Of a stretch of DNA of 64,000 nt, positions 51,184 through 57,643 are shown in pieces; within the stretch, counting starts at the first letter, position 1; the number at the start of each line of letters is the position of its first letter. The position numbers were made by a program, and so were the translations under genes. Below the pieces are notes generated by a model. The model did not search any database, was not told where the DNA came from, and saw only the letters and a list, made by a program, of their open reading frames with translations. Origin of the DNA: an uncultured Acidobacteriota bacterium (GTDB taxonomy: Bacteria; Acidobacteriota; UBA6911; RPQK01; JAPXNP01); contig CAVZRV010000030.1 in the NCBI GenBank assembly GCA_963777605.1, positions 96,001-160,000 of the forward strand, written 5' to 3'.

Positions 51184-52719
51184 ATGGCGTCTTACACGGT
51201 CATCGGTGTATTCATCGGATACCTCCTGGTTCTGCTGGGTTTCGGCGTCTGGGGAAGCCGGGAGTCAGACAGCATAGTCGGGTACTACCTGGCCGGCAAG
51301 AAGCTGCCATCGTGGGTGATCGCCTTTAGTTCCAACGCGACAGGTGAAAGCGGATGGCTCTTGTTGGGGCTGACCGGGATGGGGTACCTCGTGGGTATCC
51401 ACGCCCTCTGGGTTGTACTCGGTGAGGTGATGGGAGTAACGCTGGGTTGGGTGCTCGTCGCCCGGCCGTTCAAGGCATACACCGATCGGTATGGAGCCGT
51501 TACCGTGCCGGATTTCCTGGAGGCCCGCTTTCGGGACACCGGGCACTGGCTTCGGTTCCTGAGCGTCACGATTATCCTGTCGATGGTGACGGTGTACCTG
51601 GCGGCACAGCTGGTCGCCACCGGGAAGGCGTTTCAGACCTTCCTGGGGATGAGCTATGTCGGCGGGGTGCTGCTCGGCGCTGCCATCACACTGTTCTATA
51701 CGACGGTTGGCGGGTTCAAGGCTGTGGCCTACACGGACCTGCTGCAGGGAGTCCTGATGGCGGCGGGACTCGTAACCCTGGCGGTTGTGGGAATTGTTGC
51801 GGCCGGTGGCTGGCTGCCGTTGATGCATCAGCTCCAGGAGATCGACCCGGCGTTGCTACTCCCGATGGGAAAGCACGGCGTGTCCGCTTCCGGTGTGATC
51901 AGCGCGGTCGGTTTTGTTGGCGTCGGACTGGCATTCCTGGGTGTGCCGCAGCTGCTCGTACGATTCATGGCTGCCAAAAACGAACAGGAGATCGTCTCGG
52001 GAAGTGTCGTCGCTGTGATCTGCATCATCCTGTTCGACGTCGGAGCCGTCTTTTCCGGGATGGCTGGCCGAGTCCTGTTCCCAGGTCTGAAGGACGCGGA
52101 AACGATCATGCCCAGGATGAGCACGGACCTTTTCCCCCCCCTTATCACAGGGATCTTTGTGGTCGTCGTCTTGGCCGCCATCATGTCTACGGTTGATTCG
52201 CTCTTGATTCTGGCATCCTCGGCGGTGGTGCGAGACCTGGTCCAAAAGGTATTCCAGCCGGCTCTCCCAGAGCGTCGTCTTTCACGCTATGGCCAGTGGA
52301 CGACAGTTATTCTGGGTGTTCTGGCCATCCCGTTTGCCATAGCGCAAGTGCAGGTGATTTTCTGGTTTGTCCTGTTTGCCTGGTCAGGGCTGGCAACAGC
52401 CTTTGCACCGGTCGTGTTGTGCGCGCTCTTTTGGAAGCGCACCACTCTGCCCGGCGCGGTCGTCGGCATGGCTGGGGGGTTCCTGACGACCGTCCTCTGG
52501 GTATTGGCTTTCAAGGCGCAATTCTACGACCTCTACGAGATGATCCCAGGTTTTCTAGTGGGGACGATTCTAACGATTCTCGTAAGCCTCGGCACCGCTC
52601 GACCGGAAGGAGCCGGAGAAGAGTTCGAGTCGGTCAAGCGGGCTTTGGGATCGACTGCGCAGGGCACCAGACCAGAATGGGAGTCCCCCGGCTCTTCCGG
52701 GGAGGCAGCCGTAGTCTGA
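51184..52719 (+). CDS. Sodium/proline (PutP-like) solute symporter
   Basis: YYLAGKKL, SGWLLLGLxG, PDFLExRF, GGFKAVAYTD, GxPQLLVRFMA, LAAIMSTVDS, FAWSGL and YEMIPGF. Confidence 0.9.
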   Translation: MASYTVIGVFIGYLLVLLGFGVWGSRESDSIVGYYLAGKKLPSWVIAFSSNATGESGWLLLGLTGMGYLVGIHALWVVLGEVMGVTLGWVLVARPFKAYTDRYGAVTVPDFLEARFRDTGHWLRFLSVTIILSMVTVYLAAQLVATGKAFQTFLGMSYVGGVLLGAAITLFYTTVGGFKAVAYTDLLQGVLMAAGLVTLAVVGIVAAGGWLPLMHQLQEIDPALLLPMGKHGVSASGVISAVGFVGVGLAFLGVPQLLVRFMAAKNEQEIVSGSVVAVICIILFDVGAVFSGMAGRVLFPGLKDAETIMPRMSTDLFPPLITGIFVVVVLAAIMSTVDSLLILASSAVVRDLVQKVFQPALPERRLSRYGQWTTVILGVLAIPFAIAQVQVIFWFVLFAWSGLATAFAPVVLCALFWKRTTLPGAVVGMAGGFLTTVLWVLAFKAQFYDLYEMIPGFLVGTILTILVSLGTARPEGAGEEFESVKRALGSTAQGTRPEWESPGSSGEAAVV

Positions 52720-52831
52720 CATTTGCGGAACTCTGAGGGAGAGTTCCCCTTCGTAAGCCGACCAAAACTGCACGAAAGGGAGTTCAATGACGACAGCAGC
52801 ATCCGGGTGTCGATCGGTCGATCGAACCAAT

Positions 52832-54679
52832 GCGCGCCCACAGGCGCGCATTGTCAGGAGGGTGAGAGTCCCTCCAGGCCAGAGCTCTCCGGGCCTGTAA
52901 CCGAATGTTACTGCGCCGTCGTGAGACGGGGTGGGGGGCACAGGAGGTGAGTCACCGGTCCGTACGCGAGGAACTCGATTCGGCGATGTGTCTGGGCGAG
53001 CCTGCAGTGGAATGGCGAAGCCTGATCCGAAAGGACGGTTCTTCCTCTATATGGGTAGCTGTCAAAGAGAGAAGGGCGGGACATGGCGTGGTTGGAGACG
53101 GAACGGCGACAGAAGGCAATGCGACGCGAGCGTGGGGAGACCTGCCGACCCGGGAGAGGGTCGGACAGGAGTCCGAGTCCTCATAGTAGTGATGAAGGTC
53201 CTGTAATGGGACTGGAGCGAAGGGGGACAGGAAGGTGGAGACGAGACGACATGGGCAGCGAAGAGCAACCGACGGCAGTGTCTGAGACTAAACAAGTCGG
53301 AGAAGCCGGGTCCCGGTGGGACTGGGCGGAACGCAGCGTATGGACGGATCGGATGTTGAAGGCCCTGGAAACGGGAGTGAAAGGAGGAGCCTGGTTCAGC
53401 CTGATGGACAAGGTCTACGGTCGATGCAACTTGGGGGCGGCCTTTGCGAAAGTGAAGGCCAACCGGGGAGCGGCGGGAGTGGACCATGTCACGGTCGAGC
53501 AGTTCGACAAGCGCCTGGACGAGGAACTGGAACGGCTGCACGACAGCCTCAAGAACGGGACCTACCGCCGGCAGGGAATCCGTCGAAGCTATATCGACAA
53601 ACCGGGCAGCCGCGAGAAGCGGCCGCTGGGGATTCCGACGGTGCGGGATCGGGTAGTGCAGACGGCACTACGCAATGTATTGGAACCGATCTTTGAGGAA
53701 ACGTTCGCCGTGCGAAGTTTTGGTTTTAGTCGGGGCGCGGATGCAAGGATGCCTTACGGCAGGTGCAGCAGACGATCCAGAGCGGCCACTATTGGGTGGT
53801 CGATGCGGACATCCGCAGCTACTTTGACCGAATCTCCCACACCCGGCTTCGGGAGGAGATCCAGGGACAAGTGGCGGATGGACGCGTGCTGGAGTTGCTC
53901 GAGGCTTTCCTGAAACAGGAGATCTTCGAGGCGCTGCGGCACTGGACGCCGGAGGAAGGCTGTCCGCAAGGGGCGGTCATCAGTCCACTACTGGCCAACG
54001 TCTATCTCAATCCACTGGACCACCGGATGGAGCAAGCCGGTTTCGTGATGATCCGGTATGCCGATGATCTGGTGATCCTATGCCGAAGCGAGCAGGAAGC
54101 CCGCCGGGCGTGGCGACTGCTGGCGGAGTGGATGGAGGCGGTGGGGCTGGAATTGCATCCGGAGAAGACCCGAATCGTGGATCTTCACGAGGACGGGTTT
54201 GACTTCCTGGGGTACCACTTTCAAGCAGGCAGGTCCGGACTGCCGCGGCTGGTCAAGTATCCTCGGAAGAAGAGCATGCAGAAGCTTCGCGCCAATCTGA
54301 AGCCGCTGACCAAGCGGGCGAATGGGCGGAGTCTGGACGCGATCATCCGACTTGTGAATCTGCGACTGCGGGGCTGGTTTGGCTATTACAAACACAGTAA
54401 CCGCCGTACGTTTGAGCAAGTCGATATCTGGGTGCGCGGACGGCTCCGAGCCATTCTTCGCAAACGCCACGGTCTCCGCGGACGAGCGTGGGGTGCCGAC
54501 TACCAACGCTGGCCCAACGCCTATTTCCGCGAGCGCAGGCTGTTCTCCCTGACTGCAGCCTACGACTTGGCCACTTAATCCTCTTCGAGGTGAACCACCA
54601 ACTGGAGAGCCCGGTCCGGGAGAACCGGATGCTGGGTTCGGAGGGAAGGGTAGCGGACCAACCGCTATCCTACCCCTAG
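52832..54679 (+). mobile_element. Group II intron (RT-encoding, no endonuclease domain) with non-canonical termini GCGCG...AG
   Basis: DI basal stem CCCAC 52837/GTGGG 53132; GGGTGAGAGTCCC motif at 52860; DIII GTCC...GGAC; DV 54607-54639 with AGC triad; DVI with bulged A at 54672. Confidence 0.9.
53251..54578 (+). pseudogene. ltrA: Group II intron reverse transcriptase/maturase, frameshifted near 53730
   Basis: WFSLMDKVY, GAAGVD, RPLGIPTVRDRVVQ, then a -1 break in FGFRPGRGC, VVDADIRSYFD, GCPQGAVISPLLANVYL, RYADD, FDFLGY and thumb LRGWFGYY. Confidence 0.9.
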
Positions 54680-54799
54680 CGACAATCATTGCTTGACTAG
54701 GCAACCAGGATGCGAGGAGCATAGGGACGGTTCTTCCTCTTGTTTCAGCCATGCGCATTTTTGGGCAAACGATGCGGACGAGGAAAGGTGGTCCGAGGC

Positions 54800-57643
54800 A
54801 TGTTTTTTGTTCATCCCCTGCGATGTGGAGTCATTCTTACCCTGGTTTCCTTCTCAATGGCTTCTGAGCTGAAGGTGGGCTTTGCCGAGTTCACTCGAGA
54901 GAGTTCCGGGTCGAGTCCGGCGGCGAGTTCCTTATTCAGTCTCACAAATCCTCAGGGAATACTGATTTCGGAAGCGGGCGTCGAATCCAGCACCTTGTTG
55001 AGCCGGGGGCGAATCTTCGTGCAGCAGGATCAGCAGGTGGGCACGGGTATTGCTCTCGCAAACCCAACAGATTCTTCTCTTTCACTGAATCTGATTCTCC
55101 GCGATCTGAACGGGCAGGTGGCAGACCGAATAGATGACTTTGGGATAGGACCGCATCATCATGTTGCCCGATTTGTCAGCGAACTCTTCCCGGATGTGTC
55201 CAGCGAATTCACAGGCACCCTGACTTTGGAAGGGGTGGGACCGCTCGACAAAATAGCAGCTGTGACCCTCCGGCAGTCCACGAACGGATTCGGAGAGCCT
55301 CTTCTCACTACTCTTCCCGTCGTTGACCTGGACAGTGTGAGGGGGTCGGCCCCAGCCTCATCCAGCGAGTTCATCTTTCCCCATGTGGGCGCCGGGCCCG
55401 GCTTTTCCACTCAGCTCATTCTGATCAACCCCGGAACGGCTCGTACGGAAGGTGTCATCCACTTCAACTCTTCGAATGGAAAGAAGCTCGAACTTCAGTC
55501 AGGAGCAACGAAGGCGTCCAGTTTTCCGTTTGTGATTGCCCCTGACGGAGTCTTCTTTGGCGAGTTTGTTGCGCCTCCGGGGGGAGCGCTCGGAGTCGGT
55601 TACGCTCGAATTCAGGTGACGACCGGAGCCTTGCCGTCAGGCAGCGCCATTTTTCGATACACGGCAGGGGGGAAACCGATCTCAGAGGCCGGCGTCGGCG
55701 CACCACCTTCGATGAAGAGGGTGCGCCTCTTCGTGGATACCCGAGACACTTCTACTGGTTTTGCGATAGTCAACCCAAATACAGCTCCGCTGAACTTGAC
55801 GCTCCGGCTCCACGATGCCAATGGGAAATTGCAGTCGGAGACGAGCCGCCAACTGGCGGCCGGAAATCATCTTGCCCAGTTTGTGGGCGAGGCATTTGAA
55901 CTGGCCAGCCGGTTTGTCGGATTACTTGAGATCGAAAGCGACAGCAACTTCGTCCCGATCACCTTGAAGCTCACTCAGAACGCTCGCAGTCAGTCCATCC
56001 TGACGACGTTGCCGGTCGCCAATGTGGGGACTCCTGTTGCCGAACCACTGCTCGTCCTTCCCCAGGTCGCGACTGGAGAGAGCGTGATTGGTGAGTTCCT
56101 TACTCGCTTGGTCTTCATTGCTCCGGTTCAGGAGCAGTCGGTGAGTGGGAACCTTCAATTCTGGCAGGGGGTCGGAGAACCTCTGCAACTGTCTCTTTTT
56201 GACGGCACGATGGTCTATGCGATTGAGGACTCCGCGGTAGGGGAGATTGTCTTCAGTGATAGCCAGCTTGAGGCCAGGCTTGACAGACGTGAGAGTGTCA
56301 GCGCGGAAATCGGTTCAGAAGGGGGATCGCTCGTGCTCGAGGATTGCCTGAGCAGCCGGGTGAGCCTTGCTGTGCCGCCGTATGCGCTTCTCTCCTCGAG
56401 GGAGATCAAAATGACTTGTCTCGGATCCCGGCCTGTCGATACTCTGGGCAGCAACGTTTTTCCCGGGATATTGCTGGAGCCGAGCGGTCTGATCTTTCGG
56501 TACCCGGCAGAGCTCAGGGTCTTCCTTCCGGAACCGGTTGAGGACCCGGAGCGAAACTCCATCTTCACCCTTGGAGTCGATGGTATTCCCCGTCCGGTTT
56601 CGAACACTGCGGCGGCAGGGCAGTTCCTGGTTGGAGAGGTTCGTCATTTCAGCGAATACTGGGGAGATTCCGCTAACCTTGCCGATATCTTTAAATCGAT
56701 AGATCTGATCATTCTGGCGAAGGGGGATCCGGAGTTCCGAAAGAAATTGCTTGCGAAGTTCCGAGAGGAAATGGGGTATGAACTGAATATCGAGAAACTG
56801 GATATTGAGACGCTGGAGTTCATACGGAGTCTCGCAGAATTGGATGCATTTGCCCAATTCCGTCGCTTGACCGATATCCTGGGCGCCGACCTGGACAAGG
56901 TCCCGGATCCCCTGCGAGACTTTCTCGAAGTTCTGGTCCTCGATTTTAAGGCAAAACCCTTCCCGAAAAATCATTGCGGATACTTCCACTCTTTTGCGCT
57001 TGAGCTGAGAGATGTAGCCAAAATTGTCCTGGACTACGATCCTGATTTGGATGCCAAAATTGATCAACTGGATACTCTTTGCGTGCCTCCCGATCTGACC
57101 GGCTGGTGGAGAGCGGAATCTCGAGAACAGTCTGAATTCTGCGAGCGAATCATTACGCCGGTCACCCCATGTAACTGCGGCCCGGACGGATACGATCGGT
57201 TCACAGAATACGACTTCACCAAGCCCTATCGATTCTTCATCAATCAGGTCGGCTCCTATTTCACGATCAGCTTACCCGAGGAGCCGGGAACTCCGTTCTT
57301 CGTCGGAACCCTACAGGCGACCGGGAACATCCTTGCACCGTTTCATCTTCGGCTCGCCGTCCCCCCCGAAAATTCTCTGGAATGTAAGACCTTCTTCGAA
57401 ACGAAGGGTTCCTTCGAATTTGGAGATTCAATCTGCGTGCCGGACTACTACAACGAGTGCGAGCCGGTTTCCTGCTACGACCAGGAAACGTTGTGGGCCA
57501 CGGTCACGGGAGAGGGTCGAATTGAGGGTGTGTCCAGCTGGCTTATCGGAGCCAGGGTTATCGAATGGCTTGATGGCTGCTGCGACTATCTCACCAACAT
57601 TTCCTGCAGCGGCTCGGGCCCGTTTGTAGCCGTTCCGGATTAG
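54800..57643 (+). CDS. Large exported protein: repeated FP(Q/H)xAxG beta modules, ZU5-like domain with HFS, and Cys-rich C-terminus
   Basis: Signal peptide; two pairs of ISEAGV / TGxAxxNP / LTTLPV / FPHVGAGxGF modules; IGSEGGSL..LAVPPYAL..LEPSGLIF..EVRHFS; many Cys in the last ~200 aa. Confidence 0.8.
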   Translation: MFFVHPLRCGVILTLVSFSMASELKVGFAEFTRESSGSSPAASSLFSLTNPQGILISEAGVESSTLLSRGRIFVQQDQQVGTGIALANPTDSSLSLNLILRDLNGQVADRIDDFGIGPHHHVARFVSELFPDVSSEFTGTLTLEGVGPLDKIAAVTLRQSTNGFGEPLLTTLPVVDLDSVRGSAPASSSEFIFPHVGAGPGFSTQLILINPGTARTEGVIHFNSSNGKKLELQSGATKASSFPFVIAPDGVFFGEFVAPPGGALGVGYARIQVTTGALPSGSAIFRYTAGGKPISEAGVGAPPSMKRVRLFVDTRDTSTGFAIVNPNTAPLNLTLRLHDANGKLQSETSRQLAAGNHLAQFVGEAFELASRFVGLLEIESDSNFVPITLKLTQNARSQSILTTLPVANVGTPVAEPLLVLPQVATGESVIGEFLTRLVFIAPVQEQSVSGNLQFWQGVGEPLQLSLFDGTMVYAIEDSAVGEIVFSDSQLEARLDRRESVSAEIGSEGGSLVLEDCLSSRVSLAVPPYALLSSREIKMTCLGSRPVDTLGSNVFPGILLEPSGLIFRYPAELRVFLPEPVEDPERNSIFTLGVDGIPRPVSNTAAAGQFLVGEVRHFSEYWGDSANLADIFKSIDLIILAKGDPEFRKKLLAKFREEMGYELNIEKLDIETLEFIRSLAELDAFAQFRRLTDILGADLDKVPDPLRDFLEVLVLDFKAKPFPKNHCGYFHSFALELRDVAKIVLDYDPDLDAKIDQLDTLCVPPDLTGWWRAESREQSEFCERIITPVTPCNCGPDGYDRFTEYDFTKPYRFFINQVGSYFTISLPEEPGTPFFVGTLQATGNILAPFHLRLAVPPENSLECKTFFETKGSFEFGDSICVPDYYNECEPVSCYDQETLWATVTGEGRIEGVSSWLIGARVIEWLDGCCDYLTNISCSGSGPFVAVPD

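Follow-up and report, generated by a model that had tools for sequence, protein, structure and literature searches.

The 64,000-nucleotide (nt) stretch of DNA analysed here, referred to as the window, comes from an uncultured Acidobacteriota bacterium and carries a group II intron on its forward strand at positions 52832-54679. This 1848-nt element is a decayed copy of an 1851-nt family. It opens with GCGCG (52832-52836), the second base being C, against U in relatives. A domain II hairpin at 53142-53168 was drawn from the sequence and the alignment, the RNAalifold consensus being without this helix. It is followed by the J2/3 segment CGA (53174-53176), whose first base, C53174 (alignment column 456), is the γ position, at which every relative that does not belong to the clade described below has A. 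Domain III lies at 53177-53228 and covaries (alignment columns 459-510). Domain V (DV; 54607-54639) has an AGC triad, a 2-nt bulge and a 5-nt loop, GAGAA, and domain VI (DVI; 54640-54679) contains the candidate branch adenosine, A54672, seven bases before the end, and terminates in G54679, the γ' position. The first base of the 3' exon, C54680, is the putative intron-binding site 3 (IBS3); the matching exon-binding site 3 (EBS3) was not located.

The original prediction had recognized a group II intron with non-canonical ends, and all of its coordinates (GCGCG at 52832-52836, CGA at 53174-53176, A54672 followed by CCCCTAG, and G54679) match the sequence. The assignment was borne out by a DV that has the triad and the 2-nt bulge and leads into DVI (fold z-scores of -6.4 and -7.1), by a match to the Rfam DV/DVI model RF00029 at 54605-54673 (36.8 bits, E 5e-5, in a permissive search; the gathering score is 40), by the RVT_1 and GIIM domains of the encoded protein, and by the ends that four copies share. 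At the gathering threshold Rfam returned nothing across the whole window, and all four copies are missed; the intact copy L002 scored 42.9 bits with permissive filters only, and relatives scored 56-57 bits.

Domain IV holds a gene for a reverse transcriptase (RT) with a maturase (X) domain, the intron-encoded protein (IEP), as is typical of group II introns. In the window this gene is a pseudogene (53251-54593, forward strand): a 1-nt deletion at about 53730 shifts the frame, and a C-to-T change converts CAA to a TAA stop at 54576-54578, ahead of the TGA, equivalent to 54591-54593, that ends the intact IEP. The two remaining pieces of the open reading frame (ORF) gave Pfam matches to RVT_1 (1.7e-29) and GIIM (5.4e-15) only, with no endonuclease (En) domain found by Pfam in the IEP. 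Subtracting the 1344-nt ORF from the 1851-nt intron leaves a ribozyme of about 507 nt.

The genome (G000, 53 contigs) contains four copies of the intron, 99-100% identical to one another. When they were aligned together with their flanks, the common block ran exactly from T52831 to C54680, and the flanks were unrelated. Two copies, L002 and L003, each encode an intact RT/maturase of 447 amino acids (aa), one residue apart; another, L004, is also decaying, with its frame shifted and a change in DV. The most divergent of the four is the window copy, with 13 differences from L002, including three 1-nt deletions (in domain I, at about 53730, where it frameshifts the IEP, and near 54668 in DVI), C-to-T changes at 54630 and 54633 in DV, and a G-to-A change at 54647 in DVI. 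Since the DV and DVI changes, the frameshift and the premature stop are among these differences, the window copy is itself a decaying member of its clade and, with its own IEP lost, would at best be spliceable with protein from the intact copies. The DVI deletion and the G-to-A change leave A54672 in a 1x1 A/A loop. In L002 and L170 the adenosine forms a clean bulge of one base, followed by seven more, so that the bulged adenosine originally proposed is correct in position and appears as a clean bulge only in intact copies.

Predicted splice sites and the proposed γ-γ' pair

The 5' exon (52790-52831) is a short antisense relic of a transposase gene. Over 40 nt it is 95% identical to positions 35614-35653 of contig C35 of the same genome (locus L005), where an ORF on the reverse strand (1106-2098 of L005) includes the same peptide stretch; both the relic and this ORF are probably IS21-like. 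The paralog is uninterrupted and spans the junction (...GAACCACT|CGAC), with CCACT as the last five exon bases followed by C. T52831 is present in L005, which indicates that it belongs to the exon.

The last five exon bases at the window site, CCAAU (52827-52831), constitute intron-binding site 1 (IBS1). They pair at four of five positions with exon-binding site 1 (EBS1), AGUGG (53006-53010), which occupies a fixed alignment position within the loop GCCUG-C-AGUGG-AAU-GGC, and T52831 pairs with its first base. The paralog sequence CCACU pairs at all five positions, and CUGCU, CUACU and CCAUU, the sequences at the sites of the other three copies (L002-L004), form 5 base pairs (bp) each when G-U pairs are included. 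EBS1 and IBS1 covary in at least seven lineages (L015, L018, L021, L022, L007/L011, L106 and L170), with the combinations GAACG/CGUUC, GGAGU/ACUCC, GGGUG/CACCC, CUCCU/GGGAG, UGACC/GGUCA, CGUGC/GCACG and GAGUG/CACUC; the fit is weaker in L013 and L016 (4/5 each) and in L019 (3/5).

The basal stem of domain I, helix I(i), bears on the same boundary. Its 5' strand, CCCAC (52837-52841, intron nt 6-10), pairs with GUGGG (53132-53136, alignment columns 379-383), and an RNAalifold consensus of domains I to III from 10 lineages showed compensatory changes in this helix. The pairing leaves exactly five unpaired bases at the 5' end, GCGCG here and GUGCG in 9/9 relatives, in agreement with the earlier proposal that the basal stem fixes the 5' end at GCGCG. 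Together, the paralog, helix I(i) and the EBS1-IBS1 pairing place the predicted 5' splice site at U52831|G52832.

At the 3' end the shared block reads ...CCCCUAG followed by C, and relatives align with it base for base as ...CCCCUAU|C. The terminal 'Au' of the Rfam DV/DVI model falls on AU in the relatives and on AG in L002. The base after the intron is C in 4/4 copies of the family and in every genomic relative listed. Metagenome contigs scanned with a pattern that permitted G or T at the last intron base gave 121 matches from at least 120 loci, and among the matches listed the base after the intron was C in 98, T in 11, A in 10 and G in 2 of 121. Position 54680 thus behaves as an exon base.

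The stated group II consensus is 5' GUGYG with 3' AY. The family departs from both, with GCGCG in 4/4 of its copies and in a relative from genome G431, and AG in 4/4 copies, in G431 and in genome G442. The last intron base forms a Watson-Crick pair, γ-γ', with a J2/3 base (PMC4424553, PMC3919574); in nature this pair is either A-U or G-C, and mutants that keep Watson-Crick pairing are less impaired than disrupting ones (PMC4238363).

We compared the two positions with those of relatives from the same phylum, plus one metagenome-assembled genome record, whose IEPs are 49-61% identical. The complete relatives, 14 copies in 6 genomes, all run from GUGCG to AU, and the J2/3 γ column is A in 9/9 aligned relatives; all four copies of the family have GCGCG, γ C and γ' G. 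Among the metagenome matches listed, the 3' end was TAT in 121/121 and γ was A in 25/25 introns with J2/3 on the contig. Across 137 genomes of the taxonomic class, TAT ends were matched 166 times, in 24 genomes, and TAG ends 7 times, in 4. With relatives reading AGA/AU, the change from A-U to C-G at both positions constitutes a true compensated double change, and the C53174-G54679 pair probably forms.

One TAG end lies elsewhere: in genome G423, locus L179 (C103:97-142) ends in TAG, and eight other copies in that genome with identical DVI end in TAT. Its J2/3 is off the contig, and the TAG end is probably an uncompensated lone point mutation. Four apparent metagenome TAG ends that came from a looser pattern were actually TAT|AG and were discarded.

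The altered state extends beyond one genome. G431, from a different family of the same order, contains an intact intron with GCGCG, CGA and TAG|C, an IEP 73% identical to that of the present family, and its own matched EBS1/IBS1 (GAGUG/CACUC); a second intron fragment in G431 also has CGA. In G442 a 3' fragment from this clade ends in TAG|C, its 5' part not being assembled; a J2/3 pattern match in that genome (L187) was not an intron. DNA contigs from two other runs (X3 and X6) are about 93-94% identical. Their similarity begins at the last exon base, and within the 5' part that this comparison covers no difference occurs across the first 33 intron bases, GCGCG being kept. The presence of the swap in 4/4 copies, two of them with intact IEPs, and in the diverged G431 intron makes it a trait of the clade and not a lesion of a single copy. 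A 73% identical IEP with an open ORF and all three states retained requires that the state was maintained for a long time.

The C at position 2 is likewise common to the family and G431, and GUGCG is found in all other relatives except one metagenome intron (L106:45-1994), which starts with GCGCG and keeps J2/3 AGA and 3' AU. Its start is fixed by EBS1 CGUGC with IBS1 GCACG and by an I(i) helix UUUGC/GCAAA. The coexistence of C2 with AGA/AU in L106 indicates that the two departures from the consensus are independent and that the U2-to-C change arose separately. The apparent GCGCG starts of L063, L078 and L164 came from mis-anchored matches. Among the changes specific to the family (positions 12, 107 and 300) no consistent partner for C2 was found, G431 and metagenome variants breaking each of them. 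We also considered whether the 5' palindrome GCGCGCC-CACA-GGCGCGC folds as a local hairpin, so that a change from U2-A17 to C2-G17 would explain the substitution. This was rejected, as in the RNAalifold structure nt 6-10 and 13-24 have their partners, with covariation, at the 3' end of domain I, relatives with G17 keep U2, and L106 has C2 without such a complement. The 5' end (GUGCGC or GCGCGC) is complementary to nt 13-18, with at least 6 contiguous pairs from nt 1 in 34/45 distinct heads, and the bases of nt 13-18 also lie within the covarying I(i) and I(ii) helices. This complementarity could be an alternative hairpin that sequesters the splice site, or may be due to chance, the two strands being similar.

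Relation to known introns and insertion sites

PMC3753933 describes a 5-nt DV loop as idiosyncratic to IIE/IIF introns and gives a ribozyme size of 450-700 nt. The present family shares with class E/F, which is IIB-like, an RT/maturase without En, a ribozyme of about 507 nt, the AGC triad, the 5-nt DV loop and a 5-nt EBS1. It differs in that its own clade has GCGCG...AG instead of GUGYG...AY, in that γ is a pyrimidine, and in that most relatives are inserted just after GC-rich hairpins. The family appears to be an En-less intron with an IIB-like ribozyme and an IIE/IIF-type DV loop, a likeness drawn from ribozyme features. An intron of Kuenenia has been put near class F in a study by Toro and Martinez-Abarca (PMC3552965), which we regard as a lead only.

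Among RTs of solved structure the nearest are IIC enzymes (GsI-IIC RT, 224.5 bits), and the family also resembles class C in the lack of En and, at 37/51 sites of relatives, in insertion 1-6 nt past a hairpin. Even so, the phylum's true IIC introns (L029, L034-36, L038 and L041) differ from it in DV and termini, and their IEPs are 36-39% identical. Class C has the boundary consensus 5' GUNYGCCNRGCAUGG and 3' CCUACYCGAU (PMC4028801), and the family has neither these boundaries nor an IIC-type DV.

RmInt1, of class D, is also mobile, En-less and off the AY rule: it ends in CC and has a natural γ-γ' pair of G-C, A-U reportedly being just as frequent in nature (PMC4238363). RmInt1 functions, and its γ-γ' pair has been tested by mutation. 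It alters the penultimate base and keeps G-C, whereas the clade described here keeps the penultimate A and inverts the pair to C-G. Another set of non-consensus ends, UUGCG..GU, was given in one in-silico report (PMC7923331). In the literature searched we found no natural GCGCG...AG group II intron and no γ C or C-G γ-γ' pair; the primary catalogues (Michel 1989, Dai 2008 and the intron database) and the supplementary boundary tables of PMC4028801 and PMC3552965 lay outside this search and may list such variants.

The terminal dinucleotides are formally identical to those of spliceosomal GC-AG introns, with no mechanistic homology shown. The Watson-Crick reading of the last base by J2/3 belongs to group II introns and is not reported for spliceosomal introns (PMC4424553). 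The spliceosomal resemblance raised by the original prediction accordingly holds for the dinucleotide match and is formal only.

At the window site a hairpin, TCGATC GGTC GATCGA (52810-52825), with a 6-bp stem and a loop of 4, ends 6 nt upstream of the insertion. Among relatives (L007-L022, L042-L049 and L050-L169), 37/51 distinct sites lie 1-6 nt downstream of GC-rich hairpins, compared with 12/188 control windows, and these hairpins have stems of 7-9 bp and mostly loops of 3-4 nt. Within the genome itself only one of the four copies, that in the window, has an upstream stem of at least 6 bp. Insertion next to a hairpin is described for class C only in the literature searched. The intact paralog L005 offers a perfect target (hairpin, CCACU, then C) and is free of the intron.

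Interpretation and alternatives

We consider it very probable that the element at 52832-54679 is a mobile group II intron copy that has decayed and that it belongs to a small clade with GCGCG...AG ends in which γ-γ' is inverted from A-U to C-G. In the proposed mechanism, EBS1 (AGUGG, 53006-53010) would pair with the last five exon bases and so define the 5' splice site U52831|G52832, and the DVI adenosine at 54672 would serve as the branch point. In the second step the Watson-Crick pair between γ' and the first J2/3 base would hold the last intron base, and the clade's C53174-G54679 inversion would yield a 3' end of AG with the penultimate A retained. The U2-to-C change would be a separate, tolerated substitution. 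Identical termini at four sites, each with EBS1-complementary exon bases, suggest that RNA with these ends was reverse-spliced, and both splicing and reverse splicing at GC...AG ends appear likely.

Several points weigh against this interpretation. The case for splicing at GC...AG ends is made from DNA sequence, and the window copy is broken, with its frameshift, premature stop, two DV changes and altered branch-site context. The C-G state has a single documented origin, which makes the covariation one evolutionary event. RmInt1 mutants that kept Watson-Crick γ-γ' pairing still had lower first-step efficiency, and none was wild-type (PMC4238363). The G423 case demonstrates that a TAG end alone is no proof of function. 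The nearly uniform C after the intron means that EBS3-IBS3 gives no covariation and is uninformative, so the 3' end rests on the copy ends, homology, the distance from the branch adenosine and the γ covariation.

GCGCG, CGA and AG might instead be inactivating mutations in a dead lineage that spread by a route other than splicing, for instance by recombination or on another element; in favour of this, the window copy and L004 are clearly decaying and the consensus is violated at both ends. We regard it as improbable. The copies cease to be homologous precisely where the intron is predicted to end, their flanks being unrelated, and EBS1-complementary bases lie directly upstream at each site; two intact 447-aa IEPs differ by one residue, G431 keeps an open ORF and all three states at 73% protein identity, and both changes restore a Watson-Crick pair. 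The original claim of a functional variant and not decay is therefore supported for the lineage, given the intact copies and G431, with the caveat that the window copy itself, with its 13 differences and broken RT/maturase gene, is decaying. An alignment of copies and homologs, which the prediction had proposed as a check, gave four copies that share T52831..C54680 with the 3' end as claimed. The possibility it had named against itself, that homologs read RGA/AY and only this copy is mutated, was also addressed: homologs do read AGA/AU, but CGA/AG occurs in 4/4 copies and in G431, and the covariation to C-G that it had described is seen between these two groups.

It is slightly less probable still that the intron functions with C53174 and G54679 unpaired, the 3' site being chosen through the IEP, EBS3-IBS3 or the DVI distance, perhaps with hydrolytic or inaccurate splicing, and that the double change is a coincidence. 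IIE introns self-splice in vitro by hydrolysis only (PMC3753933), the γ position of RmInt1 has been described as not near the catalytic centre (PMC4238363), and there is only one evolutionary event to judge from. Yet both positions changed together, to a complementary pair, in one clade, and they are invariant in other members (0/25 changed at γ and 0/121 at γ' among the metagenome matches listed, and 166 TAT matches in genomes). A shift of the splice sites, to a start at T52831, an end at C54680 or a nearby canonical GUGYG or AY, is the least credible of these explanations, with very little probability left to it. T52831 and C54680 are common to the four copies, and copy alignment alone would leave the ends uncertain by +/-1 nt. 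However, the uninterrupted paralog also has T52831, which pairs with the first position of EBS1, relatives can be aligned without gaps or shifts at the termini, their GUGCG falling on positions 1-5 and their AU|C on the end, the base after the intron varies among the 121 metagenome matches listed whereas the J2/3 G is invariant, and no GUGYG or AY lies inside the ends of the shared block.

Taking the C-G inversion as the preferred explanation, we lean towards the broader view that this is a natural, recently mobile clade that splices and retrohomes with GC...AG because its γ-γ' pair is inverted, and that the same non-class-C family appears to select targets through an upstream hairpin in the DNA or RNA. 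If this is true, the rule of a 3'-terminal pyrimidine would be a mere consequence of the J2/3 base, and a spliceosomal-type AG 3' end would lie one compensated step from AY; confirmed splicing would make an AG 3' end compatible with group II chemistry. Confirmed insertion next to hairpins outside class C would widen the known target recognition of group II introns. The inverted lineage would provide a natural compensatory-mutation experiment on the second-step active site and a ready wild-type construct. GUGYG...AY serves as a defining signature and is used in boundary-finding tools, and standard annotation would miss the ribozyme of this family.

Neighbouring genes and shortened derivatives

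The intron is flanked by a sodium:solute symporter gene (51184-52719, Pfam SSF) on one side and, directly downstream, by an ORF of 967 aa (54740-57643), for which no Pfam family was found at E <= 0.001. Shortened forms occur among AU-type relatives. Genome G385 has 97 DV/DVI matches of a related AU-type intron and only 11 IEP matches, which suggests a burst of ORF-less copies. Locus L044 (51-796) is a 746-nt derivative from which about 1.1 kb of ORF has been deleted; what remains is 99% identical to nt 1-581 and 1686-1851 of the full intron. A similar-looking size class, of about 720-815 nt, is present among the metagenome loci.

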